Numbered from the stretch's first letter, positions 13,665 to 61,600 are shown. The stretch is DNA of 64,000 nucleotides from an uncultured Azospirillaceae bacterium (GCA_964352815.1 CAYGTO010000003.1:133015-197014), one strand, 5' to 3'. Numbers and translations: made by a program. The notes: generated by a model not told the origin, from the sequence alone.

Positions 13665-14687
13665 TTATGAGCTATCTGGCTTACCGATGCGCTGAATCTC
13701 CCATTGGAGCTCCACCCCGAAGTGATCCTTGACCCGGCGGCGCATCTCTTCCCCAAGCGCTTCCAGGTCGCGTGCTGTCGCTGTGCCGGTGTTAATCATG
13801 AAGTTGCAATGCTTCTCCGACATCTGCGCACCTTCTAATTCTAAACCTCGGCCGCCCACCGCGTCAATCATTTGCCACGCTTTGTGCCCCTCGGGATTCT
13901 TAAAGGTGCTGCCCCCCGTCCGCTCGCGCACTGGCTGGGTCGCCTCGCGCGCCTGTTTTATCTCACGAATTCGCTGATGTATCTCTTCTGGCTCACCTTT
14001 CTCAACGCGGAAAATGGCCTTAGTAAACACCCAATCGTTCGGCGCGGTCGAATGGCGGTAGCTATAGCCCAGCTCATCGACGCTGACCCGTTTAGTCTCT
14101 CCCTCGCCGGTGACCAGTTCAGCCGCAATCAGCACATCACTCATCTCCGTGCCATACGCACCCGCATTCATCCGAAGCGCGCCGCCAATCGTGCCCGGAA
14201 TGCCGCTCAAAAATTCGAGGCCAGCAATGCCATGATCGGCGGCGTAGAGGGCGACATTGGCATCCAGGCAACCCGCGCCAACAAACAAAGACTCGTCACT
14301 CTGCGAGGAGGCGCCAGCCTCCGCGGCAGTCCATTCTCGCATCACATCGCTAGAATGGATCGCGTCGCTTCGCTCGCGAAATGCTTCACTCTGAAACCTG
14401 AACCCCGAATCCTGAACCCTGAGCTCCGTAAACCCCCGCCCGAGCTTGATGACCACCCCGTCGATCCCACCATCGCGCACGATCACGTTCGAGCCCACGC
14501 CCAGCACCGTCACCGGCAGGTCTGCGGGCTTCTGCCTCATAAAGTAAGCAAGGTCTTCCGCATTTTCCGGTTTAAAGAGCAACTCCGCTGGGCCACCCAC
14601 CCGAAACCAGTTGGTCTTCGCCAGGTCAGCGTTCTCGCGCAGCTTGCCACGGAGATCAGGCATTATGCTTGTTAGTTCATATTTCAT
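13665..14687 (-). CDS. murB: UDP-N-acetylenolpyruvoylglucosamine reductase, carrying a repeat-derived in-frame insertion
   Basis: GVGSN, GIPGTIGGALRMNAGAYG and GSTFKNP motifs. About 45 extra residues (RVQDSGFRFQSEAFRERSDAIHSSDVMREWTAAEAGASSQSDE) lie between GRGFTEL and LFVGAG. Confidence 0.9.
   Translation of the reverse strand: MKYELTSIMPDLRGKLRENADLAKTNWFRVGGPAELLFKPENAEDLAYFMRQKPADLPVTVLGVGSNVIVRDGGIDGVVIKLGRGFTELRVQDSGFRFQSEAFRERSDAIHSSDVMREWTAAEAGASSQSDESLFVGAGCLDANVALYAADHGIAGLEFLSGIPGTIGGALRMNAGAYGTEMSDVLIAAELVTGEGETKRVSVDELGYSYRHSTAPNDWVFTKAIFRVEKGEPEEIHQRIREIKQAREATQPVRERTGGSTFKNPEGHKAWQMIDAVGGRGLELEGAQMSEKHCNFMINTGTATARDLEALGEEMRRRVKDHFGVELQWEIQRIGKPDSS
14300..14384. repeat. nested-palindrome element, TTCGCGAG subfamily, inside murB
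   Basis: The minus-strand reading gcatTTCGCGAGcgaagcgacGCGATCCATTC...GAATGGactgccgcg...cgcctcCTCGCAGA is colinear with the glyS copy at 63442-63570. Confidence 0.7.
14389..14436. repeat. tandem heptamer array (TGAAACC family) inside murB
   Basis: tctgaaa cctgaac cccgaat cctgaac cctgagc tccgtaa. It encodes the QDSGFRFQS stretch on the minus strand. Confidence 0.7.
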
Positions 14688-14757
14688 ATGTTCTCTTGAC
14701 TACAATCGCCAGTTCCAGATAACAAGTTGATTATGTTAACAAGAGCGGAGTGTAACC

Positions 14758-15186
14758 ATGAGAAGACCCGAATGGACCAAGCCTTGGGCATGTAGGCAAG
14801 ATACCAAGGGGGGATCATGCAGTTTGCGCCATTTTCCCATTCGCGAGGCAAAAGAAGGGGATCACCCTCATGGGGGAATTCCGGGAAACTATGTTGTTGT
14901 TGAGATGGTATTTGATGATCCAGATAAGGAGCGTCTAAAGCCAGGGATTGAATCAATGCTCAATGCATATCGGGGTAATGATGGTCAGCTTTTTACCATT
15001 TTTCAGAAAGATGGTCCACCTACGAGAATGGATGTGATGGTTATGAAGCATTTTCTTTTAGAGTCTGGCTGGACAGAAACAGATATTGCAGAGGCGACAA
15101 ACCGTTATCCTGAAGCGCTAGGAGTTAACGAAAGATGGGTAGATACAGTTACTCGTGGCCAGGAAACAGCAAATATGGCTCTTTAG
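14758..15186 (+). CDS. hypothetical protein (orphan, opposite strand, inside the dcw cluster)
   Basis: 142-aa ORF filling the 0.5-kb murB-murC gap. GGAG lies 8 nt upstream of the ATG. The region looks AT-richer than its flanks. No motif recognised. Confidence 0.5.
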
Positions 15187-16679
15187 GCGCTAGCGCTGTT
15201 ATGCTGGCCGATCAGTTTCTCCAGCTCTCCTGGCAGTGCGTTTGCCCATTTCGAGATGGAGCCGGCGCCGAGGCATATGACATAATCATTCGGCTGCGCA
15301 ATCTGGTGAATCGTCTCGGCGAGCTTCGTTTCAGATTCCAGCAGTGAGACTTGCTGATGGCCATGTGAGCGGATACCCTCGGCCAGCGACTCCTGACTGA
15401 TGCCCTCAATCGGCGATTCGCCCGCTTCATAAATATCAGTGACCACCACATGATCCGCATCATTAAAACAGGTGCAGAATTCTTCAAACAAATCGCGCAC
15501 GCGGCTGTAGCGGTGCGGCTGCACCACCGCAATCACGCGACTGTCTTTCTGGTCAGCGAGTCGGCGCGCTGAGGAGAGTGTCGCCGCAATTTCGACCGGG
15601 TGATGGCCATAATCATCGATAATCGTCACCCCATTCACCTTCCCCGTCTTGGTAAAGCGCCGCTTCACCCCTTGGAAATCGTTGAAGCCTTTGATAATCG
15701 CTGCCACTTCCATGTTCAGCTCATAACAGACCGACAGGGCCGCGAGTGCGTTGCGCAAATTATGATCGCCCTGCATCGGCAGGAACACGCCCTCAATCAC
15801 TCGAACCTCGTCGCTCTGCTGATCGGTGATTTCGACATCAAAGCGCTGGCCCTCGCCTTGCGGCTCAATATTCACCACGCGCACCATCGCTTGTGGCGAG
15901 AACCCGTAGGTGACAATCCGCCGGTCCGAAATTTTCGCCACCAACGCCTGTACTTCCGGATGATCGATACACAACACGCCGAAGCCATAGAATGGAAGGT
16001 TCTCAAGGAACTGACGGAACGCCGCACGCAGATTATCGAAGCTGCCATAATGATCGAGATGTTCCGGGTCGATATTCGTCACCACCGCAATGGTCGAGGG
16101 GATTTTGATAAAGGTGCCATCCGATTCATCGGCCTCAACAATCATCCACTCACCTTTGCCGAGCCGCGTGTTCGTCCCATATGCATTAATGATTCCCCCA
16201 TTAATAACGGTCGGGTTTCGACTCGCCGCTTCAAACAGACTGGCGAGCATCGAGGTTGTCGTGGTTTTGCCATGCGTTCCCGCAATGGAGATGGTCATTT
16301 TCAAGCGCATTAATTCGCCAAGCATTTCACTACGCCGCACCACTGGGATGCGCATGCGCCGTGCTTCGACCATTTCTGGATTTCCATCTTTGACTGCTGA
16401 AGAAATCACCACCACCGCGGCTTTCTCAACATTCTCAGGCATATGGCCAATCGCCACCTCAATGCCAAGGCCGCGCAGACGTTCGACATTCGGCCCTTCG
16501 GCAATGTCACTGCCCTGCACATGATAATTTAGATTATGGAGCAGCTCGGCAATACCGCTCATGCCAATACCACCAATGCCGACGAAATGGATGATGCCAA
16601 TATCGAGTGACATGGTTTTGCCAACCGGAAAAGGGCGAATCGGGATCGTCTTCCCGTCAGGGTTCACTGCCGGCGTCAT
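15183..16679 (-). CDS. murC: UDP-N-acetylmuramate--L-alanine ligase
   Basis: [12 protein letters not shown] and [12 protein letters not shown] motifs. There is an ATGA overlap with the murG stop. Alternative start at 16613 ([10 protein letters not shown]). Confidence 0.93.
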
Positions 16680-17896
16680 GCGGCGGCCTCGCTAATCGAG
16701 GAGCGCGTATCAGCTTGCGATGTTTTAGATGCTTCCTTAGCAGGCTTTTTATTTTTCTCACGCACGCCAGCCGCCATATCCAGCACAAGGTCCGCTAGCT
16801 TCTGCGCAGCATTTGGCGCCCCAATTTTCTGGATCATCGCCGCCGCTTTGGTCAACGCGCCCGGCAATGTCAAAAATGATTCCAGACGCGCCGCAAGTGC
16901 CTCTGAGGTAAAGCCATCTTGAGGCATGAGCCAAGCACCGCCAACATCTTCCGCGGCCTGTGCATTATAATATTGATGGTTATCCGTAGCAGCCGGAAGC
17001 GGCACCAAAATCGCTGGACGCCCTGCGACAGAAAGCTCCGCCATAGTCGACGCGCCCGAGCGGCTAATCACCAGATGGGCATTCGCAATTTTACTCGCCA
17101 CATCTGCAAAGAAGGTTGAGAGATTTGCACTAACACCCATCTCTTGATACATCGCGCGCACACGGTCCAAATCTTCCACGCGACATTGCTGATCGATGCG
17201 AATACGTTGGCGTAGTGTCTCAGGTAATCGCTTGATCGCTTCAGGAACCACCGTGCCGAATATGCTCGCCCCTTGCGATCCGCCGAGCACAAGCAGGTTC
17301 AGCATCGCGTCTTCCTGAAGCTCGCTGTAAGGAATATTGCGCAAGGCGCAAACCGATGCACGTACCGGGTTTCCAACCACTGCCGTTTTACGGTGCGCTT
17401 CCTTTGCCACACGCTGCGTGTTCTCATAGGTCAGCGCGATACGGCGCATGCGATGCGTCAGCATACGGTTTGCTTTTCCAAGGACCGAGTTTTGTTCATG
17501 AATCGTGGTCGGAAGCCGTAAATAAGACGCCGCCATCATGGTAGGGAAGGATGGATAACCGCCGAAACCGACCACCGCTTCTGCGTTCAGTTTTTTGAGC
17601 AACTGTCGTGATTGCATCATACCAATCGCGATACACGCCATACCCCATACTTTTTTTATGATATTGCCGCCGGGCGATGCCGCATGTACATAATAAATCG
17701 GTATCTTCCCTAGAGCGCTTTTGTCCGAGACATTATTATAATCTGCAAATCGCTTATCTGTAATGAGCACCACTTTACGCCCACGCGCGATCAACTCTTC
17801 AGCCAGCGCTTCGGCGGGAAAGATATGGCCACCTGTGCCACCCGCTGCCAAAACAATGGGGCGAGGATCCGTTTTCTGTGTGGCAGATTCTGTCAT
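16676..17896 (-). CDS. murG: undecaprenyldiphospho-muramoylpentapeptide beta-N-acetylglucosaminyltransferase
   Basis: [10 protein letters not shown] motif and GT28 architecture. A ~30-aa Lys/Ser-rich C-terminal extension is present. Confidence 0.93.
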
Positions 17897-17910
17897 ACGC
17901 GCTCGTTCAG

Positions 17911-19035
17911 TTATAAAGCGCTGTTATACTCGCCATAGCGTTTACGAGTCAAGGCAAGCATCATCCCCATGCCCAATGCTGTCGCCATCACGGAAGAGCC
18001 GCCATAGCTGATAAAGGGCAGCGTCATGCCTTTAGCGGGCAGTAAGCTGACCGCCACGCCCATATTGATAAGCGCCTGAATTCCAAAGAGAGTTAGCAGG
18101 CCTGACACGGAGAGAATCACGAACAAATCATGCTCTTCATAAAGCTTGATAAAGCCGCGCAGCACGACAAAAGCGAACACACCCACAATGATCAAACATA
18201 AGAGCAATCCGAATTCTTCTCCTGCAACAGCGAAAATAAAATCCGTATGCGAATCGGGGATGAAATGCTTTACAGTGCCTTCGCCTGGGCCCTGCCCTAG
18301 CACTCCGCCTTCGCGGAAGGCCTGAAGAGATTTCTCGACCTGATAATTATCGCCGCTTGATGGGTCGAGGAAGTGATCGATACGCCGTTTCACATGCGTA
18401 AAGCTATGATAGGCGAGCACACTGCCCGCAATCGCCGCAGCAATCAGCATAATGACCCAAAAGAACGGCATACCCGCGAGGAAGAATTGCAAACCAAACA
18501 TTGCGGTAACGGTCACCGTCATACCAAAGTCAGGTTGCAGCAACAGGAGCGCGGCAACAATCAAATAAAGCGCGATCGCAATACGGTATCCCGGAAAGCC
18601 TGGCGTACGCATACGCTCGCTGAACAGCCATGCCAAGAGCACAGCGAAGGCGGGTTTCAAAAATTCAGAGGGCTGAAGTGACAGGCCAGCAAAGCGAATC
18701 CAACGCACCGCCCCCTTATTTTCAAACCCAATAATCGGCAAAAGCATCATCGCCACCACCATCACTAAGAATACAAACACAGCGAGCCGCCGAATCGTTT
18801 GTACTTTCATCATGGACACGCAGACAAGCGTGGCAATCGCCATAGAAATAAACACCATCTGACGCCAGACAAAATGGAATGAATCATGACCAATCCGCTC
18901 CGCCACGGCGGGGCTTGCTGCGGTCGTTAGCACGACCCCGAGGCTCATTAATACCATCAATGCGATCCAGGTCGGGCGATCAATCGTCCACCACCAACGC
19001 ATCAAAAAGGAGGGGTCCCGCCTATCGGTATACAT
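17911..19035 (-). CDS. ftsW: peptidoglycan glycosyltransferase FtsW
   Basis: Polytopic SEDS protein with PSEFLKP motif. Start placed at MYTDRRD (19035), just overlapping the murD end; the ORF is open to 19200. Confidence 0.9.
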   Translation of the reverse strand: MYTDRRDPSFLMRWWWTIDRPTWIALMVLMSLGVVLTTAASPAVAERIGHDSFHFVWRQMVFISMAIATLVCVSMMKVQTIRRLAVFVFLVMVVAMMLLPIIGFENKGAVRWIRFAGLSLQPSEFLKPAFAVLLAWLFSERMRTPGFPGYRIAIALYLIVAALLLLQPDFGMTVTVTAMFGLQFFLAGMPFFWVIMLIAAAIAGSVLAYHSFTHVKRRIDHFLDPSSGDNYQVEKSLQAFREGGVLGQGPGEGTVKHFIPDSHTDFIFAVAGEEFGLLLCLIIVGVFAFVVLRGFIKLYEEHDLFVILSVSGLLTLFGIQALINMGVAVSLLPAKGMTLPFISYGGSSVMATALGMGMMLALTRKRYGEYNSAL

Positions 19036-20449: not shown

Positions 20450-20452
20450 GAT

Positions 20453-28395: not shown

Positions 28396-28469
28396 TATCA
28401 ACACACTAGCTGTGGATAAGGCTGGGGATGAGGATGTGGAGATTAGGATCTAGGTATCTGAAGTATAAA

Positions 28470-28540
28470 GGTTTTAGTTTTCAGGTTGTAGGTTACAGCA
28501 TGGCTATTTCTGAAACCTGCAACCTAACACCTACAACCTA
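28470..28540. repeat. inverted heptamer arrays (GGTTTCA/TGAAACC family) forming a hairpin at the rnpB 3' end
   Basis: The left arm is ggtttta gttttca ggttgta ggttaca. A 13-nt loop follows. The right arm is tgaaacc tgcaacc taacacc tacaacc. On the minus strand the hairpin is followed by TTTAT. Confidence 0.75.
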
Positions 28541-28544
28541 TCCA

Positions 28545-29042
28545 ACGAAGAGGGCCGATAAGCCGGGTTCTGTCACTGGCATTGCCAGGGATGGCCATTC
28601 ATCTAGGCCGCTTGTTGCCAAACGGCTCATGCACCCTACCCGAGATGCTGGTGCGAAACTCACTTGCGGCGATTACCTTTGCACTACCAAAAGCGTTCGG
28701 ACACGGCCGCGCGCATCTCCTATTTGGGCTTGCTCCAGACAAGGTTTACCATGCCGCCTGTGTTACCAAAGGCGCGGTGGGCTCTTACCCCACCCTTTCA
28801 CCGTTGCTTTGCATATGCTCCCCGCTTCGGTCGTCTGACCTACGCGATGGAGCGCCGCTCAGGGCTGGCCTTGCTGCTGCAAGGAATATTGCCCCGAAAC
28901 TACATACAAAGCAGTCTACTTTCTGTGGCACTGTCTCTCGGATCACTCCGGGCGGGGGTTACCCGCTGCCTTGTTTCGTGGAGCCCGGACTTTCCTCCCC
29001 CTATCGCGAGCGATAGAGAGCGACCATCTGGCCCTCTTCGGA
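28545..29042 (-). ncRNA. rnpB: RNase P RNA (bacterial type A)
   Basis: The reverse complement contains GGAGGAAAGTCCGGGCTCCA, GGTGAAAGGGTGGGGTAAGAGCCCACCGC, GGTAAAC, GAGCAAGCCCAAATAGG, CCTAGATGAATGG and ACAGAACCCGGCTTATCGGCC. The P1 helix is formed by GAAGAGGGCC/GGCCCTCTTC at the two ends. Confidence 0.93.
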
Positions 29043-29637: not shown

Positions 29638-30366
29638 TTACAATTGTGTTAAAAGTGCTGCCAGCCGCTTCTGGCATGCTTCGTCCCATTGCCCATCGAC
29701 TGTCTCAGGCCGGAAATGGCGCTGGAAGGCGCTGATGACGGATGATATCTCATCATCACTTGGGGATTCGGAGAGGCCGTATCCGTATTGTGACAAGGTA
29801 ATAGGTAATTGGGAATGGGCAATGGATTGCGTGCTATTACCTATTTCCAATTCCCCATTGCCGATCTTAGGCCACAGCCCAATGCCTTCTTTCGCGAACC
29901 TTTCCCAAGGAAATAGCTCCCCCGGATCTTGCTTTCGGCTCGGCGCGACATCGCTATGGCCAACCACATTGCGCGCAGGAATATCATGGCGTGACAGAAT
30001 CCCATGGCTAAGCGCAATCAACGCTTCCATCTGTACTTCGGGAAATGTCCGGTAACCCCATTCATGGCCGGGATTGACAATCTCAATGCCGATTGAGCGC
30101 GCATTAATGTTGCTATGGCCGCGCCAGCTCGCTACCCCCGCATGCCAGGCGCGTTTTTCCTCATCGACCAGCTGAAGCACCCGCCCATTCTCTTCCACCA
30201 TATAATGCGCCGAGACCTTTGCCTCCGCGTCACACATACGCTCGAGCGCCTCATTTCCTGTTTTCATGCCGGTGTAATGCATGATCAGCATATCCACAGG
30301 TTGCAGAGACCCATCCGGGTTCACGCGCTCGTCGAAATTGGGGCTCTTTCTTCTCACAATTGTCAT
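29638..30366 (-). CDS. N-acetylmuramoyl-L-alanine amidase (AmpD/AmiD-like) with C-terminal PG-binding domain
   Basis: Amidase_2 pattern (MHYTG, AHYMV, WHAG, GHSDVAPSRKQDPG) and a C-terminal PG_binding_1-like segment. Start placed at MTIVRRK (30366); the ORF is open to 30438. Confidence 0.88.
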   Translation of the reverse strand: MTIVRRKSPNFDERVNPDGSLQPVDMLIMHYTGMKTGNEALERMCDAEAKVSAHYMVEENGRVLQLVDEEKRAWHAGVASWRGHSNINARSIGIEIVNPGHEWGYRTFPEVQMEALIALSHGILSRHDIPARNVVGHSDVAPSRKQDPGELFPWERFAKEGIGLWPKIGNGELEIGNSTQSIAHSQLPITLSQYGYGLSESPSDDEISSVISAFQRHFRPETVDGQWDEACQKRLAALLTQL

Positions 30367-30424
30367 ACTTCTCTTGTAACGGGTTTGATACAAAGATTCA
30401 AAATGAATTAGCGGATGGAACGTT

Positions 30425-31033
30425 ATGAAACATACCACTGAAGCTTCTCCTCATGAACACGCAACATCAAGTTCTGGCATCCCAGTGCACTGGCGTTCTC
30501 ATAGCGTCGAGCCGATTGAATATGATCAGCTAGACGGCCTACTCCGCGACCATGGACTCTACGCGGACAGCGTACAGTTTTTTGAAAGAGCTAAATTTAC
30601 ACCAATCAAATTATATCAAACAACGTATGGTGGTGATGTGTATACAAATTACGGTATCATGGTCCGGTTCGAATCACTTTCATTCTCTCCAGAGATGTTG
30701 GAAGAACCTCTCAAAACTGAAGCTATGGATAATTACTACGAACTATTGGCCGGCCAAATAATTAAAGCGATCTCCCCTGGTGCTGAAGGCGCAGGCTCTG
30801 TTTGCAATGAATATGGGGACCCGCTCTACTCTGCATTCCCGCAAATCGTGAAAGACGAAATTGGGAATATATGCGTTACCCTTATGTTCGCCAGGCCTAA
30901 AGGGGTGTCAATGGACGAGCTCGATAAGGCCGAAGCTTCCATACTATTTCGTGATCAAATCGATACATATATTAGTAACATTCCTTGCAATTTGAACATT
31001 GCTCCTGTGCAAGCGAGCGTTAGCCGCCATTAA
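30425..31033 (+). CDS. hypothetical protein (orphan)
   Basis: 202-aa ORF divergent from the amidase gene; AT-richer by eye; no motif recognised. Confidence 0.5.
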   Translation: MKHTTEASPHEHATSSSGIPVHWRSHSVEPIEYDQLDGLLRDHGLYADSVQFFERAKFTPIKLYQTTYGGDVYTNYGIMVRFESLSFSPEMLEEPLKTEAMDNYYELLAGQIIKAISPGAEGAGSVCNEYGDPLYSAFPQIVKDEIGNICVTLMFARPKGVSMDELDKAEASILFRDQIDTYISNIPCNLNIAPVQASVSRH

Positions 31034-31902
31034 AGCTTATTGAACCGCACGAGTTTCGGTCGTCTGAAGACGATCACTGCGACGCCAACCATGGTGACGC
31101 AGGCGCCGAGGATCATGTCGGGTTTAAGCTCTTCGCCAAGCAGCGCAACGCTCAACCCAATCCCGATAAACGGAATCAGTAAGGAGAAAGGCGTGACTTG
31201 CGACACCGGGTATAGCCGCAGCAAATGATACCACAGCCCATACGCAACAATGGTAGAAATAATGGCTGAATAGATAATTCCCGCGCCGGCATTGAACGGC
31301 GTGTTTATGATCAACTCGATATGGTTTGACTCTAAAATCAATGACGCGGCAGCCAATTGTGGCAGCGCGGTCAGCGAGCTCCAGGCGATGATCGGGATGA
31401 TGCGTGTTTCTTCAAGGGTTTTGGCGTAAATATTCGATGACGCCCAACAAAACGCACCGGCGACCGCCAGGAGGAACGGCACCCATTGTTCGCTGACGTT
31501 CGGCGTGCCCGCAAGCAACATCAGCCCCATAAAGGCGATGCACAGCCCCATCGTGCGCCACATGCCGATTTGGTCTTTGAGGAAAATGGTGCCGAGCACT
31601 ACGGAAAAGGGGACGCCCATCTGAATTGCGACAACGGCGGTGGAGACATCAAGCCCCATGCGCAGCGCGGCAAAAACAAGCGAGAAATGCAGGCTCACCA
31701 TGAGCAAGGCAAGAATCGACAGCTTCCCCCACCCCATCGGCCGCGGCCCCGCGAACGGCAAGAGTAGAATCACCACCAACACATAGCGGATGAGGATGGT
31801 GTAGATTGGCGGGAAATGCATCACCGCATATTTCGACGCAACAAAATTCCCGCCCCAGCTGATGGCGACGATGATGGCGTAGAGAATGTGAATCGGTTTC
31901 AT
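31030..31902 (-). CDS. EamA/DMT-family transporter
   Basis: About 10 TM helices in a duplicated EamA-type arrangement, 290 aa. Confidence 0.8.
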   Translation of the reverse strand: MKPIHILYAIIVAISWGGNFVASKYAVMHFPPIYTILIRYVLVVILLLPFAGPRPMGWGKLSILALLMVSLHFSLVFAALRMGLDVSTAVVAIQMGVPFSVVLGTIFLKDQIGMWRTMGLCIAFMGLMLLAGTPNVSEQWVPFLLAVAGAFCWASSNIYAKTLEETRIIPIIAWSSLTALPQLAAASLILESNHIELIINTPFNAGAGIIYSAIISTIVAYGLWYHLLRLYPVSQVTPFSLLIPFIGIGLSVALLGEELKPDMILGACVTMVGVAVIVFRRPKLVRFNKL

Positions 31903-31939
31903 GGGCTAGGGTTTAGGGGTTCGGGATTAGGGTGTAAAG
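31903..31939. repeat. heptamer array (divergent GGTTTAG/GGGTTCG variant)
   Basis: gggctag ggtttag gggttcg ggattag ggtgtaa, immediately upstream of the transporter start. Confidence 0.5.
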
Positions 31940-33770: not shown

Positions 33771-34733
33771 ATGGCCCCCAAACAGCCCATCTATGAAGGA
33801 AAAGCGAAAAAACTATTCGAAGGCCCGGAGCCAGGAACGTTGATCGCGCATTTTAAAGATGACGCGACGGCCTTCAATAATAAGAAAAAGGGCACGATTA
33901 GCGGCAAAGGCGTACTGAATAACCGCATTTCCGAATATTTGATGACGCGCCTATTTGAAATTGGCATCCCGAATCACTTCATCAAACGTATCAACATGCG
34001 CGAACAGCTGGTGCGGGCGGTGGAAATTATCCCGATTGAAGTGGTCGTACGCAACCATGCGGCGGGGCAGTTTGCTGAGCGTTTTGGCGCGATCGAAGGT
34101 GAACCGATTGGCGTGCCACTCGTTGAGTTTTACCTGAAAGATGATCGGCTGGGTGACCCTATGCTTAGCGAAGAACATATTTTCACCTTCGATATTTGCG
34201 ACCCGATGGAACTGGAAGAAATTCGCCATTATGCGATCCGCATCAATGACTATCTAATGGGCCTCTTTGGCGGTGTTGGCGTACGCCTGATCGATATGAA
34301 ACTCGAATTTGGCCGCCTCTATGATGAAGAAATGGTGCAAATTATTCTGGCCGACGAGATCAGCCCTGATAATTGCCGCCTGTGGGATATGACCAGCGGT
34401 GATAAGCTCGATAAGGATCGTTTCCGCAAGGATTTGGGCGGCGTTGCAGATGCGTATCGTGAGATTGCAAGACGCCTGGGACTGCTGCGCGAAGGAGAAG
34501 ATCTACCGCAAGATGATAATATAGGATTAATTGAAACCGTTGATCGCAAAGTTGAAACGCTACCCTATGTTCGCAAGAAAGGGGCAACAGGGCCAGTTGC
34601 TGTGAAACCTGCAGCCAGCTCAGGCAACAGCAAAACAACCAAAGCGGCGCCGAAAAAGAAAAGCGCGAGCACCTCTAAGTCGACGAGTAAGAAGAAACCG
34701 ACCTCTTCCGGCCGGAGCAATAAGCCGAAATAA
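33771..34733 (+). CDS. purC: phosphoribosylaminoimidazole-succinocarboxamide synthase with Lys/Ser-rich C-terminal tail
   Basis: YEGKAKKLF entry and a SAICAR synthase core up to ~aa 250, followed by a ~65-aa basic low-complexity tail. Confidence 0.92.
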
Positions 34734-43153: not shown

Positions 43154-43984
43154 CTACCTAAACTCAAACAGCGCTCGGAAAATCCCATGCCAGGTGTTTA
43201 CTTCCTGCGTGCTAAGGTCCGCTCTCAATAAAGAAGTGCGGATATTGCGCCACATGGCAGACTTTTTCTCGGGCACGCTCCAGAAATTCGCCTGATCAAG
43301 CATGGGTTCAAGCTGGTCAAACAGCGCCTGTAGCTCACCGTGGGTTGCATTTACACCGTCATCCTGAGAGAGCGCAGCGACCGAAGGATCTTCTATCCTG
43401 TGGCGCGATAGATCCTTCGCCGGCGGCTCAGGATGACGAAGATTAGCCTCCCGAATCCCGAATTCTTGCCTAAACCACTCATAACACACAATATTAACTG
43501 CTTGACCAAGATTCAGGGACGGATAGTCCGGATTCGCCGGAATCGGCAGAATCGCCTGCGCCAGCGTGACATGTTCATTGGTCAGGCCCGTGCGTTCTGG
43601 GCCGAAAAGAATGGCTACACTGTCATCCCGCGATTTAATCGCGGGATCTCTACTTGCATCCAGAGATCCCCTGGTCAAGCCACGGGATGACAACATTTCA
43701 CTAATATCCGCCTCCGGCTTATGCATCTCTCGGTCGCGCGCCGTGGTGGCCAGTACATAGTCACAGTCCGCTATGGCCGCTTCTAACGTGTCATAGAGCT
43801 GCGCCGCCTCAATCAGGTGCTTTGCCCCCGCCGACAGGCTCAGCGCCCGCTCATTGGGCCAGCCATCGCGCGGATTGACAATTCTAAGCTCCGACACGGC
43901 GAAATTATGCATTGCCCGCGCCGCCGCACCAATATTCTCGCCCATTTGCGGCTCAACGAGGATGATTTTCGGAGATTGTTGCAT
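43154..43984 (-). CDS. SpoU/TrmH-family RNA 2'-O-methyltransferase (TrmJ/LasT-like) with two repeat-derived insertions
   Basis: ILVEPQMGENIGAAARAM, ILFGPERTGL and SLNLGQAV motifs. The extra segments LSSRGLTRGSLDASRDPAIKSRDDS and HPEPPAKDLSRHRIEDPSVAALSQDDG coincide with the two repeat copies. Confidence 0.85.
   Translation of the reverse strand: MQQSPKIILVEPQMGENIGAAARAMHNFAVSELRIVNPRDGWPNERALSLSAGAKHLIEAAQLYDTLEAAIADCDYVLATTARDREMHKPEADISEMLSSRGLTRGSLDASRDPAIKSRDDSVAILFGPERTGLTNEHVTLAQAILPIPANPDYPSLNLGQAVNIVCYEWFRQEFGIREANLRHPEPPAKDLSRHRIEDPSVAALSQDDGVNATHGELQALFDQLEPMLDQANFWSVPEKKSAMWRNIRTSLLRADLSTQEVNTWHGIFRALFEFR
43358..43437. repeat. nested-palindrome element (GTCATCCTGAG subfamily) inside the methyltransferase CDS
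   Basis: 80 bp, identical at 75 of 80 positions to 45121-45200, in the same orientation. Confidence 0.9.
43622..43691. repeat. nested-palindrome element (GTCATCCCGCG variant) inside the methyltransferase CDS
   Basis: GTCATCCCGCG-atttaat-CGCGGGATCTCT-acttgcatcc-AGAGATCCC-ctggtcaagcca-CGGGATGAC. Confidence 0.85.
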
Positions 43985-54779: not shown

Positions 54780-55847
54780 TTATGGGAACACAAACACGGC
54801 ATTTTTCTGCCCAGTCACCACAGAAGAACGCCGCGCTGAACGACTGTTCGGAAAGACCGCATCGGGCTGCAAACTACGAATCACAGAGACGCTCGACGTC
54901 GATGGCCGTACTCCTTCAGGGCGAAGACTGCGCGGCGCAGAGGATACAGACACTTCAATCGGTTTCACGCTTGGGTCGTCTTCCTGAGCGGATGATGTTG
55001 CTGCGCGGCTATTGGTTTTGGGGCGGATAACCAAAACCGGCGACTCTTTGGACTCACCATTTTCATCCAGCACCGCAATACGATTAATGGATTGCAGCGG
55101 ACGCTGAAGTGCTGGAGAGACAGACCCACCGGCGGCAGGACTTAAATTTGCCAGGAACGCCACCTCTTGCAACGGGTCACTTGAATAGTCATTCGATGCC
55201 ATCATCGCCGCACGCTGCTCACGGCCATTCTTCAAGCGAACAGACAATTTTTTCCAATGATCATAGACTTTTGCGTAGTAACGCGCGCCTTTGCTAGGCG
55301 TTCGAGAATGGTAAATAGACGCTGCGCGCTGCCAATCGCCCGTCTCTAAATAGTTGATACGGAGAAATCGTGCCGCATAACCAACATTGTATGCGGGGTC
55401 AAACGCTTGATCAAGGTTCGCAAAGGCAGCTGGGTGGTGAAACAGGTTCACCTGCATACACCCCACATCAATGCTTTTCTTACCTTGCCGCTGAAATTCG
55501 CGCACGTTCGCTACTGCTTCGCGCTTACTATTATAGAAATAGCCCTGCCCTTCGACATTGGCGGTCCAAGGCCATGGCAACAACATTTTTAACTGTGAGC
55601 TATAGCGTCCCGATTCGGTCGTCGCGATAGCCGCCAGCAAATGTTGCGGTATCCCGTGAAACCTCTCATGCTTTGAGAAATGCTGCGTACAGCGCCTGGC
55701 TTCACGCACAAGTTGTGCTTCTGACACTTTCGCTCCGGTAACCGCGATTGCAGGCGTTCCTGTCGTTGCGGTGATTCCGATACACAGCGCGAGTGCTGAA
55801 ACGGTCATCTTGCGATATGGATTATGTAACATATTTTTGCACCCCAC
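54780..55847 (-). CDS. lytic transglycosylase (SLT domain) protein
   Basis: Signal peptide; ATTESGRY catalytic Glu region, PWPWT and DVGCMQVN motifs. Confidence 0.85.
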   Translation of the reverse strand: MGCKNMLHNPYRKMTVSALALCIGITATTGTPAIAVTGAKVSEAQLVREARRCTQHFSKHERFHGIPQHLLAAIATTESGRYSSQLKMLLPWPWTANVEGQGYFYNSKREAVANVREFQRQGKKSIDVGCMQVNLFHHPAAFANLDQAFDPAYNVGYAARFLRINYLETGDWQRAASIYHSRTPSKGARYYAKVYDHWKKLSVRLKNGREQRAAMMASNDYSSDPLQEVAFLANLSPAAGGSVSPALQRPLQSINRIAVLDENGESKESPVLVIRPKTNSRAATSSAQEDDPSVKPIEVSVSSAPRSLRPEGVRPSTSSVSVIRSLQPDAVFPNSRSARRSSVVTGQKNAVFVFP

Positions 55848-55936
55848 CCAAGCGCAAACTTCATTTTTATTCAGACCTTATTAAAGAACCAAATTTTCGT
55901 AGTCTTGTCACGGGGATTGTTGCCTGGGTGCACAGC

Positions 55937-56926
55937 TTAGCGCAGAGGCGCTATCGATTCCGCTGAGGACGCGTCACTGACCTTTTCTTCTCGCACGCCA
56001 ATTAACCACGCCATCATATCATTATATACATTCTGTCGCTGGTGATCGCGTAGCAACATATGATAGCCTTCCGGATATTCTTTATAGGTTACTTCGCTCT
56101 GATTAAAGAGCGGGCGCACGCGCTGAATCGAGTCGGCTGGAATGATCTGGTCTTTTTGCCCATACAGAAGCAGGGTCGGAACGCTGATATCTGGCGCGGC
56201 CAAATGCGTTTCATCCATCACATTCACCAGCCCATAGATCGCATCGGCTCGCGTTGACGTAACGATGTTCGGGTCGCCCGCCATCTGCGTGAGCACTTGC
56301 ATATTATCTGTTGCCACCACATCAAGCCCTTCGCCTGTAAATTCAGAGGCTGGGAAGGTGCGCGTGACGAGCCACAGCGGAAAGCGGTGGAATACGCTAA
56401 GCGACGCATCGCCCCATACGGCAGGGCCGACTAAGATCATCCCATCGATGAGAGACGCTACCTCTGTTTCTGACGCCGCAAGCATCGCAATCGCGCCGCC
56501 CATACTCTCGCCCATTAGGTAAAGCGGCACATCCGGATTGCCTTGCTTAATAAGGCGGAGTGTTTGCGCTACATCATTCACCAGATGATCACGGCCTGCC
56601 CAAATGCCCCGATGCGACTCATTTCGACCAAAGCCGCGTTGGTCATACGCAATCAAGGCCACATTCTGCGAGGCTAAAAACGTGCCGGGCAATGCGAAGG
56701 CCTGGCTGTAATCATTGAAGCCATGTAGCGCGAGAATGATCGCATCTGATTTGCCTTTCGGCAACCACATAGAGAGAGGCAATGTCTGGCCATCGGGCGC
56801 AGTGTAATGGCTCGTACTGAGAGAAGCGTCTTGCGTAGTTTCTGCGAGGGGATGCTGTTCGGGCGCTGCGCATGCGCTGACGCATGCCATGAGTATAAAA
56901 GTGAAAATGTAAGGCATCATACGCAT
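55937..56926 (-). CDS. alpha/beta hydrolase lipoprotein (lysophospholipase-like)
   Basis: Lipobox VSAC, HGFND oxyanion region and nucleophile elbow GESMGG. Confidence 0.8.
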   Translation of the reverse strand: MRMMPYIFTFILMACVSACAAPEQHPLAETTQDASLSTSHYTAPDGQTLPLSMWLPKGKSDAIILALHGFNDYSQAFALPGTFLASQNVALIAYDQRGFGRNESHRGIWAGRDHLVNDVAQTLRLIKQGNPDVPLYLMGESMGGAIAMLAASETEVASLIDGMILVGPAVWGDASLSVFHRFPLWLVTRTFPASEFTGEGLDVVATDNMQVLTQMAGDPNIVTSTRADAIYGLVNVMDETHLAAPDISVPTLLLYGQKDQIIPADSIQRVRPLFNQSEVTYKEYPEGYHMLLRDHQRQNVYNDMMAWLIGVREEKVSDASSAESIAPLR

Positions 56927-57002
56927 CGGCGGAAGTGATAGCGAATTTGCCTGCCACGAACAAGGATTGTTTTATGTGCGCCTGCTTTTGCGCGCCCAAA
57001 AC

Positions 57003-57031
57003 TTGCCGAAATCACTGTTTTTTGGTATAAT
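57003..57031 (+). promoter_or_regulatory. sigma70-type promoter candidate for usg
   Basis: TTGCCG, a 17-nt spacer, then TATAAT, about 30 nt upstream of ATG 57062. Confidence 0.4.
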
Positions 57032-57061
57032 TTGAGAAAGAAGAAAAAAATAGGGAAGCGT

Positions 57062-57331
57062 ATGACGCCTGCGGACTTTGAGTTGCTTGTCAAAGATTAT
57101 CGCCTGACCACGGCGGAGATCTTCTATTGCTTCCCTGATCACCCCTCCCTACTACAAACATTCGTCTGGCAAGAGCTTGATCTCGCGCCTAAATTCCCAG
57201 AATTAAATAAATTTTTGGGCTTTTGGGAAGACTCGATCGATGGCCGCTTACACTCCGTTCAGGTTACAAGCGCCGAGACCATTTCTCCAGCACAATTCGC
57301 CTGGCGCAGCGGCTCACTCCAACTCCAGTAA
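57062..57331 (+). CDS. usg: Usg-family protein
   Basis: DYRLTTAEI.Y..PDHP.LLQ.F.WQ..D..P.FP pattern. Start placed at MTPADF. Confidence 0.8.
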   Translation: MTPADFELLVKDYRLTTAEIFYCFPDHPSLLQTFVWQELDLAPKFPELNKFLGFWEDSIDGRLHSVQVTSAETISPAQFAWRSGSLQLQ

Positions 57332-57415
57332 GAGTATTCCTACACATGGTGACACGAAGAGGTTGCCATTCAGGGCTGCTTTGCCATAGACATAGCGCAA
57401 GGAAGAGAGGTTTCT

Positions 57416-58510
57416 TTGCGTATCATCAATATGATGCTCGGCACCAAACGCGGCGGCATTGAACAGGCCGTGATCGACTATGCCGAAGCCATGCAGCATC
57501 AAGGCATTGAGGTGCTGAATGTGTTTCGCAAAGATGCGTGGGCGATGGAAGCTTCTGCCTATTTAAATCAATCATCATGCATCATTAACCCGCTCTCACG
57601 TTGGGATCCCCTCACCACGCAGCAGCTGCGCAAACGTGGAGAAGCCTTCGACGCACAGGCAGTCATTGCGCATGGTAACCGCGCGATTCAATTTGCGCTG
57701 CGTGCCTTTGGCGGACGCATCCCGGTCATTGCTGTCGCGCATAATTACCATATTAAGCGTTTCCCACAGTGCGACGCCGCCTTCACCATCACGCGTGATT
57801 TATACGAAGAGCTCGCCGCCATCGACATGCCACGTCACACGCTGTTTCACGTACCCAATATGGTACGTGTGCCCGATCACACACCACGCAGCGCATTTCA
57901 CTCCCCCGTGCGTATTGGCAGCATGGGACGGTTTGTCGCAAAGAAGGGCTTCCCTTGTTTCGTAAAAGCATTGGGTGAACTACATCAACGAGGCGTGCCA
58001 TTCCATGGCATTTTGGGCGGCGACGGTCCTGAGCTAAATGAAATTCAGCGCGTCGCGGAACGCGCGGGTCTACCTATTCTTACGCGCGCCCCTGAGCACA
58101 GCGACGAAGGCAGCGCGCTCTATTTGCCCGGCTGGGTGAATGATAAATGGCGCTTTTTTGAAGAGATCGACATATTCGCCCTGCCCTCCCATCACGAACC
58201 GTTTGGCATTGTATTAATCGAAGCGATGGCCGCTGGCCTTCCCACTGTCACCACTGCAAGCGAAGGGCCATGTGAGATCATTACGCAACATCAAGACGCC
58301 GTCATGGTCGACCTGAATGATCATCGCGCAATGGCCGACGCGTTCGAAGCCTGGATCGCATCGCCCGAGACGGCGCTCAATGTTGGCAACGCCGCTTATG
58401 ACACTGCCAAGCGCCGCTACGCTCTCTCCGAAGCTGCCAAAACCATTGAAGCCGCGTTGCGACGTGTGATCTTTGCAAGGCCCGATACGCGCATTATATT
58501 ATCTGCATGA
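57416..58510 (+). CDS. glycosyltransferase family 4 (GT-B)
   Basis: EPFGIVLIEAMAAGLPTV (EX7E region). TTG start preceded by GGAAGAGAGG. Confidence 0.8.
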   Translation: MRIINMMLGTKRGGIEQAVIDYAEAMQHQGIEVLNVFRKDAWAMEASAYLNQSSCIINPLSRWDPLTTQQLRKRGEAFDAQAVIAHGNRAIQFALRAFGGRIPVIAVAHNYHIKRFPQCDAAFTITRDLYEELAAIDMPRHTLFHVPNMVRVPDHTPRSAFHSPVRIGSMGRFVAKKGFPCFVKALGELHQRGVPFHGILGGDGPELNEIQRVAERAGLPILTRAPEHSDEGSALYLPGWVNDKWRFFEEIDIFALPSHHEPFGIVLIEAMAAGLPTVTTASEGPCEIITQHQDAVMVDLNDHRAMADAFEAWIASPETALNVGNAAYDTAKRRYALSEAAKTIEAALRRVIFARPDTRIILSA

Positions 58511-59346
58511 CCATTTATTCTGCACCCCTCATAGATCGATCCATCCTGTGCATCAGCGGGCCAGACCGCTCGACATTCCTTCAAGGGCTCATCACCAATG
58601 ATGTGGCGCGTTGCGACAAAGGCGAGCCGATCTTCACCGCCATGCTCACCCCGCAAGGTAAGCTCTTCGCGGATTTCTTCATATTACCAGAAGCCGGTCA
58701 TTTCCTCATCGACACCCATCACAGCTACGCGGCGGAGCTGATGAAAAAACTGCGCATGTATAAGCTGCGCGCCGATGTTGAGATTGAAGATATCTCGGCG
58801 GATAGGGTAGTAGCCGCAAGCTGGGGCGATGCCGCTGCTACATATGAATCGATTCTGTCTTTCAATGATCCGCGCCATGACGCTCTCGGCATGCGCCATT
58901 ATGGCCGCGCGGAGGCAATGAAATCACTGCTCGCAGCAGGCGAGCCCGCTTCTTATCATGCGCACCGCATCAGCCTCGTCGTTGCGGAAGGCGCGTATGA
59001 CGCCACCGACCGGAGCTTCATCCTCGATATGGGCTATGAAGAGCTGAACGCCGTCGACTACCAAAAGGGCTGTTATGTCGGCCAAGAAGTCACGGCGCGG
59101 ATGCATTATCGCGGCGTGAAGCGCAAAGGCATGGTCTGCATCGGGGCGCATAGCCCTGAAGCCAGCCTGCCCGAGCTTGGTACACCGCTAATCGCGCATG
59201 GCGACAAGGAAACCACTATTGGCGAGATGCGCTCCAGCGAAGGCCCCATCGGGCTCGCCATGGTCAAGTTGGAAGCGCTTGGGGACGCTCAGGCGGCAAA
59301 CCTTGACATCACCGCCGGCGAAACCCACATTAAGATAAAGACATAA
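58507..59346 (+). CDS. ygfZ: folate-binding YgfZ/CAF17-family protein
   Basis: GcvT-like N-terminus (ISGPDRSTFLQGLITNDV) and KGCYVGQE motif. Confidence 0.85.
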   Translation: MTIYSAPLIDRSILCISGPDRSTFLQGLITNDVARCDKGEPIFTAMLTPQGKLFADFFILPEAGHFLIDTHHSYAAELMKKLRMYKLRADVEIEDISADRVVAASWGDAAATYESILSFNDPRHDALGMRHYGRAEAMKSLLAAGEPASYHAHRISLVVAEGAYDATDRSFILDMGYEELNAVDYQKGCYVGQEVTARMHYRGVKRKGMVCIGAHSPEASLPELGTPLIAHGDKETTIGEMRSSEGPIGLAMVKLEALGDAQAANLDITAGETHIKIKT

Positions 59347-59475
59347 ACCGTGCGGCGCCGTATAATCGTAATCGGCTGAAAAATAAGCAAGTCTCATTTT
59401 GGGTGGCTCTGTGCTGCGCTGTTTCTTCCGTGCAAATATGCACTTGATATGGTAAGATAAAGGAATGACCGAAGT

Positions 59476-60189
59476 ATGAAATTTACATCCTTCTTCAAGC
59501 AAAAACAAAAAGAACAGGAATCGCAGGCATCTATGGATCAAACTGACCCGAACACCAGCTACCCTCCCCTGACTGAACCCGGCGCGTCGAGCGCTTCCAC
59601 CATTGAAGATGCGCAATTTTCGCTGCTTGGCAGTGATGGGTTTTTATCGGGCACTTTGCTGGTCGCCTCTCCACTTATCACGGAAAGTGTGTTCCACAAA
59701 TCAGTGATTTACCTGTTCGCGCACAGCGATGATGGCGCGATGGGCTGCATGATCAACCAGCCGATCGATACCGTGAATTATGGCGCGTTGCTTGGCGAAT
59801 CCGACCCGGCGGTGCAAACCGGTCAGCGCGAGTTGGATGTTTATTTTGGCGGCCCCGTGGAACGCACACGCGGCTTTGTGCTGCATAGTAGCGAATATAA
59901 ACCAGAATTGGCGCTACACGCCCATGATGATGTGTCAATTACCGCTGTTTCGGGCATTTTGCGCGACATGGCGCAAGGCGAAGGCCCGGATCATGCCTCA
60001 CTGATTGTTGGCTATGCTGGCTGGGCGCCAGGGCAGCTAGAAACAGAAATTGAGCAAAATAGCTGGATTAATGTCCCTGCGAGCAAAGAGCTTCTGTTTG
60101 ATACGCCGAACGACCTCAAATGGGCCCGCGCCAGCCAATCGCTCGGCTTCGACATGGCGTTTTATTCGCACAGCGTCGGGCATGCGTAG
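59476..60189 (+). CDS. YqgE/AlgH-family protein
   Basis: GTLLVASP.....F.KSVIYL..H...GAMG..INQP and GYAGWAPGQLE motifs. The N-terminal ~45 aa are low complexity and the start is uncertain. Confidence 0.85.
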   Translation: MKFTSFFKQKQKEQESQASMDQTDPNTSYPPLTEPGASSASTIEDAQFSLLGSDGFLSGTLLVASPLITESVFHKSVIYLFAHSDDGAMGCMINQPIDTVNYGALLGESDPAVQTGQRELDVYFGGPVERTRGFVLHSSEYKPELALHAHDDVSITAVSGILRDMAQGEGPDHASLIVGYAGWAPGQLETEIEQNSWINVPASKELLFDTPNDLKWARASQSLGFDMAFYSHSVGHA

Positions 60190-60250
60190 TTATACCTTTG
60201 CGCGCTAATACCCATTGATTTTCCTAGGCAACCCGGTTACAACCGCGTGC

Positions 60251-61210
60251 ATGTCGAAAAGTACATCCAAAACCCCCTTCGCATTCCAGGATATCATCCT
60301 GACACTTCAGCATTTTTGGGCGGAGCAGGGGTGCGTGATTTTGCAGCCCTACGACATGGAAGTGGGCGCCGGGACGTTCCACCCCGCGACGACGCTACGC
60401 GCGCTCGGACCGGAGCATTGGAACGCGGCCTATGTTCAGCCTTGCCGCCGCCCATCCGATGGCCGTTACGGTGAAAACCCCAACCGGCTGGGCCATTATT
60501 ATCAGTTTCAGGTCATTCTGAAGCCCTCACCCGACAACATCCAGCAGCTTTATCTCGACTCGATCGCCGCGCTCGGCATCGATCCGCTCAAACATGATAT
60601 TCGTTTCGTGGAAGATGACTGGGAATCCCCTACTCTTGGCGCGTGGGGGCTGGGCTGGGAAGTCTGGTGCGACGGCATGGAAGTGACGCAATTCACCTAT
60701 TTTCAGCAAGTGGGCGGCATTGAGTGCAAGCCCGTCTCCGGCGAGCTAACCTACGGGCTGGAGCGGCTGGCGATGTATATTCAGGGCGTTGAGAATGTGT
60801 ATGACCTGGTATGGAATCAGGTGCCTGGTGCCAGGGGCCAGGGGTCAGGAAGTCATCCTGAAACCCGAAACCTGAAACCTGTAACCTATGGCGATGTGTT
60901 CCTACGCAATGAACGCGAGCAAACCGCCTATAGCCTAGAGCATGCAAACACCGACATATTGCTGCAACATTTTAAAGATGCCGAAGCCGAATGCGCGCAG
61001 CTTCTTGAAAAGAAACTTGCTTTGCCTGCCTATGATCACTGCATCAAAGCCTCGCATCTGTTCAACCTGCTCGATGCGCGTGGGGTGATTTCGGTGACCG
61101 AACGTGCGGCATATATTGGCCGCGTCCGCGCCTTAGCCAAAGGCTGCTGTGAAGAATATGTGAGGGGTCAGGTTTCAGGTTTCGGGTTTCAGGAAAAAGA
61201 GGCTTCATGA
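60251..61210 (+). CDS. glyQ: glycine--tRNA ligase alpha subunit, with an internal and a C-terminal repeat-derived segment
   Basis: [17 protein letters not shown] entry, colinear with E. coli GlyQ. The extra [22 protein letters not shown] lies before YGDVF. The C-terminus [14 protein letters not shown] is encoded by the heptamer array. Confidence 0.92.
60820..60886. repeat. inverted heptamer arrays inside glyQ
   Basis: The left arm is ggtgcct ggtgcca ggggcca ggggtca. The loop is aagtcat. The right arm is cctgaaa cccgaaa cctgaaa cctgtaa. Confidence 0.8.
61164..61193. repeat. heptamer array, left arm flanking the four-helix-bundle gene
   Basis: ggggtca ggtttca ggtttcg ggtttca gg. This is the inverted complement of 61570-61600. 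Confidence 0.8.
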
Positions 61211-61587
61211 TTCGTTCTTATCAGGATTTAGAGGTGTGGAAGAAATCCTTGAGGCTGGTTAAAGACGTGTATGGCTGCACAAGACTTTACCCAAAATCCG
61301 AACTCTATGGCCTTGTAAGCCAGACACAACGAGCCGCTGTATCGGTGCCAGCCAATATTGCTGAAGGCCGCACGCGTTATTCCAAAAAAGATTTTGTTTC
61401 TCATTTGAAGATTGCTTCTGGCTCTTTAGCCGAGCTTGAAACGCATCTTTTCATTGCCACTGAACTCGGCTATATCACGATAGAACAGCGAGACGCTTTG
61501 TTAAATACATCCGCCGAGATAGGCCGGATGCTCAATGGCCTGGTGAATTCGTTGAAAAGCGAAAAACAACTGGAACCCGAAACCTGA
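61207..61587 (+). CDS. four-helix-bundle protein (23S rRNA intervening-sequence protein / Avd-like family)
   Basis: LEVWKKS..L.....Y.....[44 protein letters not shown] matches the family signature. There is an ATGA overlap with the glyQ stop. Confidence 0.88.
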
Positions 61588-61600
61588 CACCTGAAACCTA
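61570..61600. repeat. heptamer array, right arm flanking the four-helix-bundle gene
   Basis: ctggaac ccgaaac ctgacac ctgaaac cta. It encodes the last residues (LEPET) of the four-helix-bundle ORF. Confidence 0.8.

Follow-up and report, generated by a model that had tools for sequence, protein, structure and literature searches.

Tandem heptanucleotide arrays and an intervening-sequence protein gene in a genome region of an uncultured Azospirillaceae bacterium

The window analysed here, a stretch of 64,000 nucleotides from an uncultured Azospirillaceae bacterium (GCA_964352815.1 CAYGTO010000003.1:133015-197014), contains short arrays of tandemly repeated heptanucleotides at seven sites (Table 1). 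They occur inside murB, glyQ and a gene with Amidase_2 and PG_binding_1 domains, next to rnpB and to an EamA-family gene, and on both sides of a small gene, located between glyQ and panD, that encodes a protein of the PF05635 family ('23S rRNA intervening-sequence protein', hereafter IVP). Three heptamer variants are present in the window, GGTTTCA at five sites, AGGTAAT/TGGGAAT at one and TAGGGTT at one, and the arrays are laid out as four inverted pairs, with approximately four units per arm, and two single arrays. Tandem Repeats Finder called a period of 7 at the intervals given in Table 1. In our own periodicity scan, in which periods 4 to 12 were compared at a score threshold of at least 10 with 30 dinucleotide-preserving shuffles as null, we found six arrays of period 7 (shuffle mean 0.1, maximum 1) and none of periods 4-6 or 8-12, all array counts referring to the 64-kb window alone. 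Allowing up to three mismatches, the unit pair CAGGTTTCAGGTTT matched 20 times against 3.8 +/- 1.9 expected, and a skeleton of RGG every 7 nt, four times in succession, matched eight times, always within arrays, against 0.05 expected.

A preliminary description of this sequence had proposed such a family, usually inverted and partly inside open reading frames (ORFs), and had named genome-wide counts no higher than in composition-matched shuffles as what would refute it. Inspection of the sequence shows period-7 arrays at all of the sites that it listed, the excess is evident within the window, and inverted pairs indeed prevail over single arrays. The hairpin at 29796-29859, absent from that list, was found by the scan. 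A 13-of-14 match in the tail of purC (34603-34616), also assigned to the family, has been dropped because it is at chance level, being the sole match outside the arrays, where about four are expected. The existence of a dispersed family of tandem heptamers, mainly in inverted arrays, is otherwise confirmed.

The protein encoded between glyQ and panD scores well above the cut-offs of PF05635 (129.8 bits, cut-off 33.8) and of TIGR02436, the 'four helix bundle protein' (124.5, cut-off 24), and also exceeds that of NF008911 (145.4, cut-off 137). It is homologous to XCC0516 (PDB 2GSC, five chains, E 1e-22) and to 2RLD. The preliminary description had recorded the arrays on its two sides but overlooked that they are the two arms around a PF05635 gene. 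The resulting cassette measures about 437 nt, and its arms are predicted to pair over about 27-28 bp, in the minimum-free-energy as well as the centroid fold of a 466-nt transcript (z -3.3). It is closely interlocked with its neighbours, the glyQ stop codon overlapping the IVP start (ATGA, 61207-61210) and the IVP stop codon lying inside the 3' arm, 15 nt ahead of the panD ATG; panD starts at 61603, 3 nt past the arm, and has no visible Shine-Dalgarno sequence. This combination of overlap, short distance and missing Shine-Dalgarno sequence suggests translational coupling through the cassette. Elsewhere in the window we found neither further IVP genes or fragments nor any rRNA gene, rnpB being the only Rfam match, and PADLOC defence models gave no match.

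Table 1. Heptamer arrays and the IVP gene in the 64-kb window; positions are counted from its first nucleotide.
Feature	Position	Strand	Context	Period-7 calls by Tandem Repeats Finder
Single array, ~5 units	14387-14436	-	Inside murB (ORF 13665-14687, minus)	14391-14422
Hairpin, two inverted arrays of ~4 units, 14-nt loop	28468-28541		Directly 3' of rnpB	28514-28540
Hairpin, two inverted 4-unit arrays, 8-nt loop	29796-29859		Inside Amidase_2/PG_binding_1 gene (29638-30438, minus)	
Single array, TAGGGTT TAGGGGT TCGGGAT TAGGGTG	31903-31939	+	Ends at EamA-family start codon (gene 31030-31902, minus); third variant	
Hairpin	60818-60887		Inside glyQ (60215-61210, plus)	60818-60849, 60857-60887
G-rich 5' arm, GGGGTCA GGTTTCA GGTTTCG GGTTTCA GG	61162-61193	+	Also encodes GlyQ C-terminal tail ..GQVSGFGFQ..	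61168-61193
IVP gene, 126 aa	61207-61587	+	PF05635 and TIGR02436 matches	
C-rich 3' arm, CTGGAAC CCGAAAC CTGACAC CTGAAAC CT	61570-61600	+	Pairs with 5' arm	61570-61599

By analogy, the closest known construction is the ORF-carrying intervening sequence (IVS) of rRNA. In Coxiella burnetii, the 23S rRNA IVS has a length of 428-444 nt, a 28-bp terminal stem cut by RNase III and an IVP-family ORF, called S23p, that is preceded by three to four tandem GACAGAT heptamers (PMC4990558). The cassette of the window shares with the ORF-bearing IVS of Leptospira and Coxiella the inverted-repeat stem of about 28 bp around a PF05635 ORF and an overall length of about 430-440 nt. It differs in its location, since an IVS is inserted in the terminal loop of a 23S rRNA helix (helix 9, 25 or 45), whereas the cassette occupies the space between glyQ and panD, where it overlaps coding and start regions of its neighbours, and in the presence of ORF-less copies inside protein-coding genes. 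Moreover, whereas the Coxiella ORF is deemed by its authors to be decaying (PMC4990558), the window IVP is conserved at the pace of PanD (see below).

The association between repeat and gene extends far beyond this window. We aligned 25 homologues and took 80 loci from species-representative genomes, with IVPs 44-59% identical to that of the window, belonging to Acidobacteriota, Planctomycetota, Chloroflexota, Desulfobacterota, Nitrospirota, Patescibacteria, Bacteroidota, Cyanobacteria, Alpha-, Beta- and Gammaproteobacteria, and two archaeal lineages. Among the 79 IVP genes with complete flanks, 64 had an array within 200 nt, 36 on both sides and 28 on one, against 5 and 35, respectively, of 305 other ORFs from the same loci used as controls. 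Where both sides carry arrays, the downstream unit reads as the reverse complement of the upstream one in 34 of the 36 cases. The arms sit close to the gene (a median of 26 nt separates the end of the upstream arm from the start codon, and a median of 6.5 nt the stop codon from the downstream arm), most commonly have four units (three to five in 81%) and, of all 238 arrays in the sampled loci, 120 lie no more than 150 nt from an IVP gene. Although the unit varies by genome (CAGGTGT, CAGGGAT, TAGGGGC, AGGATTG, TGGGGTG, AGCGAGT, GGTTTTC and others), a weak shared skeleton ending in (C/T)AGG can be recognized. Arrays also adjoin six of nine IVP genes on viral contigs. The IVP stop codon falls inside the array in 16 of 58 cases; stop codons in the C-rich arm are only modestly enriched as a general rule (24/58 units, 18% expected). 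The repeat and the IVP gene are, accordingly, one unit that recurs across bacterial and archaeal phyla, a result that covers the subfamily close to the window's protein plus two cases from the literature, the Coxiella IVS and XCC0516. In the latter, an array of four GGGAATC units overlaps the annotated start of the gene, which is listed only as 'conserved' (Rehm et al. 2015, supplementary table, PMC4692102). In some genomes (L047, L032), two IVP genes lie near each other; the two of L047 have separate heptamers (GGTTTTC, GTTTTCT), and a third, AAAGTTC, is dispersed nearby with no visible IVP gene.

The reverse test started from 120 metagenome loci picked solely by the pattern (CAGGTKT)x3+CAGG. 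Five of them hold an IVP gene, which in four cases touches the matched array; an IVP gene is present in each of the three pairs whose left arm is G-rich and whose loop measures 300-500 nt. Hence, arrays far outnumber IVP genes, and IVP is their single recurrent cargo. Arrays adjoin IVP genes in Brevundimonas, in a metagenome-assembled genome (MAG) labelled Rhodopseudomonas and in other alphaproteobacterial MAGs, so that heptamer arrays are not rare in Alphaproteobacteria, a class for which the preliminary description gave no equivalent. In the literature surveyed, which leaves most subscription journals uncovered and may miss an earlier description, we found no general link between IVP and heptamers, the two appearing together only for the single Coxiella IVS. 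What appears to be new is the IVS-type IVP cassette outside rRNA, accompanied by ORF-less heptamer hairpins, and the general association of gene and repeat.

Each genome has its own heptamer variant, common to the IVP arms and to arrays elsewhere in the same genome: in loci with both kinds of array, those more than 600 nt away from an IVP gene show at least 6/7 identity to the flanking heptamer of that gene in 52% of cases, compared with 9% for the flanks of other loci. In relatives of the window's organism, the gene order glyQ-IVP-panD-glyS is kept (panD sits between glyQ and glyS in this clade) and arrays are found at the same four places; the closest named relatives of its GlyQ are alphaproteobacterial. 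The unit at glyQ-IVP is GGTTTCA in the window and in the relative L085, GGTTCCA in L084 and GGCTTCA in every array of L083. Judging from these sequences, such a shift in all arrays together is a concerted change, not independent decay. Identity among relatives is 45-65% for IVP, 50-61% for PanD and 79-81% for GlyQ and, because IVP diverges at the pace of PanD, the comparison points to vertical inheritance of the gene under continued selection. Repeat and gene make up an old and stable unit here and no recent insertion. In two relatives, the GlyQ loop insertion (see below), the repeat-encoded tail and the IVP gene after glyQ are all missing, and no real arrays were detected in 42 kb of their sequence.

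Inverted pairs follow a strict handedness. The G-rich arm is the 5' one in 31 IVP cassettes and the C-rich arm in one; the corresponding numbers are 8 and 1 for short hairpins at IVP loci, and 29 and 1 for those of the pattern-selected set. As the repeat is inverted, the rule holds whichever strand is read. Candidate causes are selection against exposing C-rich, Rho-attracting RNA before its partner arm has been transcribed, inheritance from the layout of the cassette, and a way of making arrays in which 3' ends are extended by the G-rich strand. Another regularity noticed by eye, a third unit reading CGGG, was unsupported by position-wise counts.

Pairing, handedness and conservation bear directly on the simplest alternative, ordinary slippage microsatellites that the IVP would neither make nor use, the cassette integrating or being retained at arrays, for example by recombination between them. 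Many bacterial genomes have an excess of heptamer repeats, for which slippage was put forward as the cause, according to work cited in PMC4692102 and PMC4679880; copy number does differ among Coxiella strains (PMC4990558), most arrays have no IVP gene nearby and some IVP genes have no array. Slippage, however, predicts neither the reverse-complement pairing nor the fixed handedness of cassettes and short hairpins, neither a length mode at four units nor the identical change of a heptamer in four separate arrays, and it sits poorly with the two relatives that lack both the IVP gene at the site and the arrays. We therefore regard it as rather unlikely. Slippage-type variation, which the preliminary description had suggested looking for, is a poor account of arrays that are short (mode four units), paired as reverse complements, of fixed handedness and in the same places in relatives whose GlyQ proteins are 79-81% identical.

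A second alternative sees in the arrays mobile hairpins, such as miniature inverted-repeat transposable elements (MITEs), repetitive extragenic palindromic (REP) sequences or Rickettsia palindromic elements (RPEs), moved by a transposase encoded elsewhere, with IVP as a passenger. RPEs behave likewise, as small hairpins scattered in the genome and found in-frame inside genes, and the arrays too are small and scattered in intergenic and coding DNA. The GlyQ loop, where one of the window hairpins resides, is a hot spot that is filled in some relatives and empty in others, and different hairpin elements occupy it in still other relatives. Nevertheless, the copies have only the 7-nt unit in common and no full-length consensus, they keep the same places in relatives at the GlyQ divergence given above, no ORF other than IVP recurs inside the pairs, and target-site duplications do not exceed the control level, although this last test is weak with borders as fuzzy as these. 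Mobility of this kind is, in our opinion, very unlikely.

The hot spot itself, between the GlyQ motifs VYDLxWN and TYGDVF, accepts several unrelated hairpin elements, as L084 (5380-5560) carries a GC-rich hairpin of a different kind there (..gagggttgggtgaggggg.. / ..cccccatcccaacc..). In L088 (493-1446), the loop that holds the heptamer hairpin in the window is filled by a 'GTCAT'-type element (GATCC..GCTTCGCT..GGATGAC). Members of this second repeat family also stand directly beside heptamer arrays twice in the window, at 14355-14385 in murB and at 43410-43438, next to a mini-array of two units (43449-43463). Two metagenome GlyQ sequences, P0121 and P0123, contain an internal duplication whose break coincides with the loop insertion site, and both are probably assembly chimeras caused by repeats. 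Hairpins of this type may break assemblies; the contig of one relative ends just past an array.

The position of the individual arrays is relevant to a third alternative, in which they would serve the host in regulation, at the RNA or DNA level, as terminators, processing sites, translation controls or G-quadruplexes. Each array would then be under selection for the good of the adjacent genes, and IVP would be a trans-acting regulator or unrelated to the arrays. Such roles were proposed by earlier authors for the heptamers TAACTGA, GGGAATC and GGGACCG, and the window offers a hairpin exactly at the 3' end of rnpB (28543-29039, minus strand, Rfam, 315 bits) as well as an array that touches the start codon of the EamA-family gene. 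On its plus strand, the latter has four GGG runs with loops of 3-4 nt (31909-31932) and could form a G-quadruplex on the non-coding strand. By contrast, the GGTTTCA family of the window has no four or more GGG runs, and its main unit contains only GG runs, with which a stable, three-tetrad quadruplex is unlikely. As RNA, either strand of the short hairpins gives a good fold (-22 to -32 kcal/mol), with z-scores from -1.7 for the sense strand in glyQ to -4.4. The stems of the IVP cassettes show no bias in strength towards the sense strand. The hairpin abutting rnpB, equally stable on either strand (-27 kcal/mol, z -3.4 and -4.4), is followed by no U-tract, and no promoter or terminator signals were found at the arrays of the window. 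Of the seven sites, three are coding and occupy variable loops or linkers (murB, the amidase gene and the glyQ loop), and an arm of the cassette encodes the tail of GlyQ; in such places, a regulatory function is difficult to envisage. Selection for local regulation is, on this evidence, distinctly unlikely.

In coding sequences, the arrays are tolerated, in line with their occurrence inside ORFs in the preliminary description. The murB array, whose sense strand reads CAGGGTT CAGGATT CGGGGTT CAGGTTT CAGAG, is placed within a stretch of about 45 additional residues that interrupts the FAD_binding_4 domain. The amidase hairpin, built from the second heptamer variant (arm AGGTAAT AGGTAAT TGGGAAT GGGCAAT and its complement), occupies a variable linker ahead of the PG-binding domain. 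The glyQ hairpin (left arm GGTGCCT GGTGCCA GGGGCCA GGGGTCA GG, loop AAGTCAT, right arm CCTGAAA CCCGAAA CCTGAAA CCTGTAA CC) adds about 20 aa to a surface loop of GlyQ that is short in array-free orthologues. In its right arm (at 60860-60870), the second unit is CCCGAAA instead of CCTGAAA, a T-to-C change that abolishes a would-be in-frame TGA; a perfect array of at least three CCTGAAA units has a stop codon in every frame. The array-encoded peptides (..HPETRNLKP.. and ..GQVSGFGFQ.. in GlyQ, ..DSGFRFQ.. in MurB) agree with those quoted in the preliminary description. Short in-frame heptamer hairpins lengthen housekeeping proteins such as these two. The rnpB gene measures 497 nt against the 367 positions of its model; two expansions, one of about 85 nt and one of about 44 nt, align to the P12 and P15/16 regions, and neither contains heptamers. 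Just left of its hairpin, a degenerate G-rich run of period 6-7 (28409-28455, GGATAAG GCTGGG GATGAG GATGTG GAGATTA GGATCTA) may be a decayed array.

The explanation that we favour, and hold to be the probable one, is that the arrays are the arms of a family of hairpins built from heptamers according to the construction of the IVS, one copy of which carries the IVP gene in its loop. An element of this family would comprise two complementary arms, the G-rich one with about four 7-nt units and the other C-rich, on either side of a loop. The segment 61162-61600 would represent the ORF-bearing copy; the hairpins in glyQ, in the amidase gene and at the 3' end of rnpB would be ORF-less copies, and the arrays in murB and in the EamA leader single arms. 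XCC0516 having crystallised as a five-subunit ring, we infer that IVP binds tandem heptamers with about one unit per subunit. Binding of this sort would hold arrays near four to five units, would make all the arrays of a genome change together with the protein and would also explain why the heptamer is particular to each genome. Paired as RNA, the two arms would make a duplex of about 28 bp that, where untranslated, may be a substrate of RNase III, as in rRNA. The ORF-less copies would depend on the protein of the ORF-bearing copy or descend from such a copy. At glyQ-IVP, the duplex is probably opened by ribosomes, since those on glyQ traverse the 5' arm and those on the IVP gene enter the 3' arm.

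Several observations weigh against this explanation. No array was found near 15 of the 79 IVP genes. Among the 120 pattern-selected loci, only four have an adjacent IVP gene, most arrays being far from any, and loops of 90-270 nt in this set contain no IVP remnants but ordinary, mutually unrelated intergenic DNA. A cut by RNase III in the 5' arm would strip the glyQ mRNA of its stop codon, so that processing cannot be efficient here. The stability of the cassette stems is not biased towards the sense strand (40 loci versus 42, with duplexfold energies inflated by long inputs), and there is consequently no sign of RNA structure selected on the mRNA. At 45 hairpin borders, target-site duplications were not found beyond the control level, a test weakened by the fuzzy borders, which gives no evidence that the hairpins move by transposition. 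The specificity of IVP for its heptamer is likewise ambiguous. IVP identity correlates with heptamer similarity (Mantel r 0.29, reached in 0/2000 permutations), but the heptamer AGGGGCT is common to genomes of three phyla whose IVPs are only averagely similar, and for this reason the signal may reflect shared ancestry or co-transfer rather than specificity. Another cross-phylum group, with AGGTGTC, does have similar IVPs, so that shared-heptamer groups give a mixed result. Mutual information between residues and nucleotides, a statistic that ignores phylogeny and provides a lead only, singles out IVP residues 55-68 and 102-104. Finally, the role given here to the IVP protein is, as a whole, one that we infer.

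Other heptamer repeats resemble the window arrays in part. The short tandemly repeated repetitive (STRR) sequences of heterocystous cyanobacteria were reportedly described by Mazel and colleagues in 1990 and are said to occur also within cyanobacterial rnpB (Vioque, 1997). With seven sites of tandem heptanucleotide units in 64 kb, the window arrays are similarly dispersed, lineage-specific and associated with rnpB, and the likeness to STRR put forward in the preliminary description is valid in kind. It does not extend to the units (CCCCAGT, TTGGTCA and CAACAGT in STRR; GGTTTCA, AGGTAAT and TAGGGTT here), to the host, which is alphaproteobacterial, or to the architecture, the window arrays being short (about four units), mostly in inverted pairs and outside rather than inside rnpB; the nearest construction is the ORF-carrying rRNA IVS and not STRR alone. 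The GGGAATC repeats of Xanthomonas and the GGGGA(C/T)T repeats of Nostoc, interpreted as G-quadruplex formers (Rehm et al. 2015, PMC4692102), share the four-unit mode, some inverted pairs, the same intergenic places in related species, and the drift of sequence and length. They differ in that the main unit of the window cannot form a three-tetrad quadruplex, and a link to PF05635 was not drawn by Rehm 2015. The elements of four heptanucleotides of Geobacter metallireducens (GGGACCG, 49 copies) and the TAACTGA repeats of Beggiatoaceae and cyanobacteria, both presented by their authors as putative regulatory sites, also have four to five tandem heptamers, lie between and within genes, and are genome-specific. 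Neither inverted pairing nor an association with IVP was reported in those descriptions. From all of these repeats, the window arrays also differ in the sequence of the unit and in their host.

Two protein systems are instructive with regard to binding. HutP-type ring proteins read RNA triplets spaced 7 nt apart; the likeness, an oligomeric ring on a short motif at 7-nt spacing, is an analogy of mechanism only and implies no homology to IVP. The accessory protein Avd of diversity-generating retroelements (DGRs) binds nucleic acid as well as the reverse transcriptase of the retroelement. It is homologous to IVP and has five subunits, each a four-helix bundle (PMC10053308). The window IVP is more distantly related to Avd than to XCC0516, scoring below the cut-off of the Avd model NF033474 (39.4 versus 80 bits), and it differs in having glyQ and panD as neighbours, with no reverse transcriptase or template/variable repeat pair near the gene.

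The findings bear on two questions that are some thirty years old: the cause of the over-representation of tandem heptanucleotides in many prokaryotic genomes, from STRR in 1990 to later genome surveys, and the function of the very large PF05635/TIGR02436 family together with the origin of rRNA intervening sequences. It is possible, although we advance this only tentatively, that free-standing IVPs are sequence-specific binders of tandem heptamers that create, homogenise or maintain arrays throughout the genome, with each paralogue having its own heptamer. They would then be a common cause of the prokaryotic heptanucleotide excess (STRR, GGGAATC, TAACTGA and others) and of rRNA intervening sequences, and possibly the ancestor of the Avd of DGRs. 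XCC0516 offers a crystallised member of the family in a genetically tractable host whose arrays are already catalogued. If such a role is true, the orientation of the arms, G-rich from 5' to 3' toward the centre on both strands, would record how arrays form, one possible route being that G-rich repeats are added, from a template, to both 3' ends of a break.

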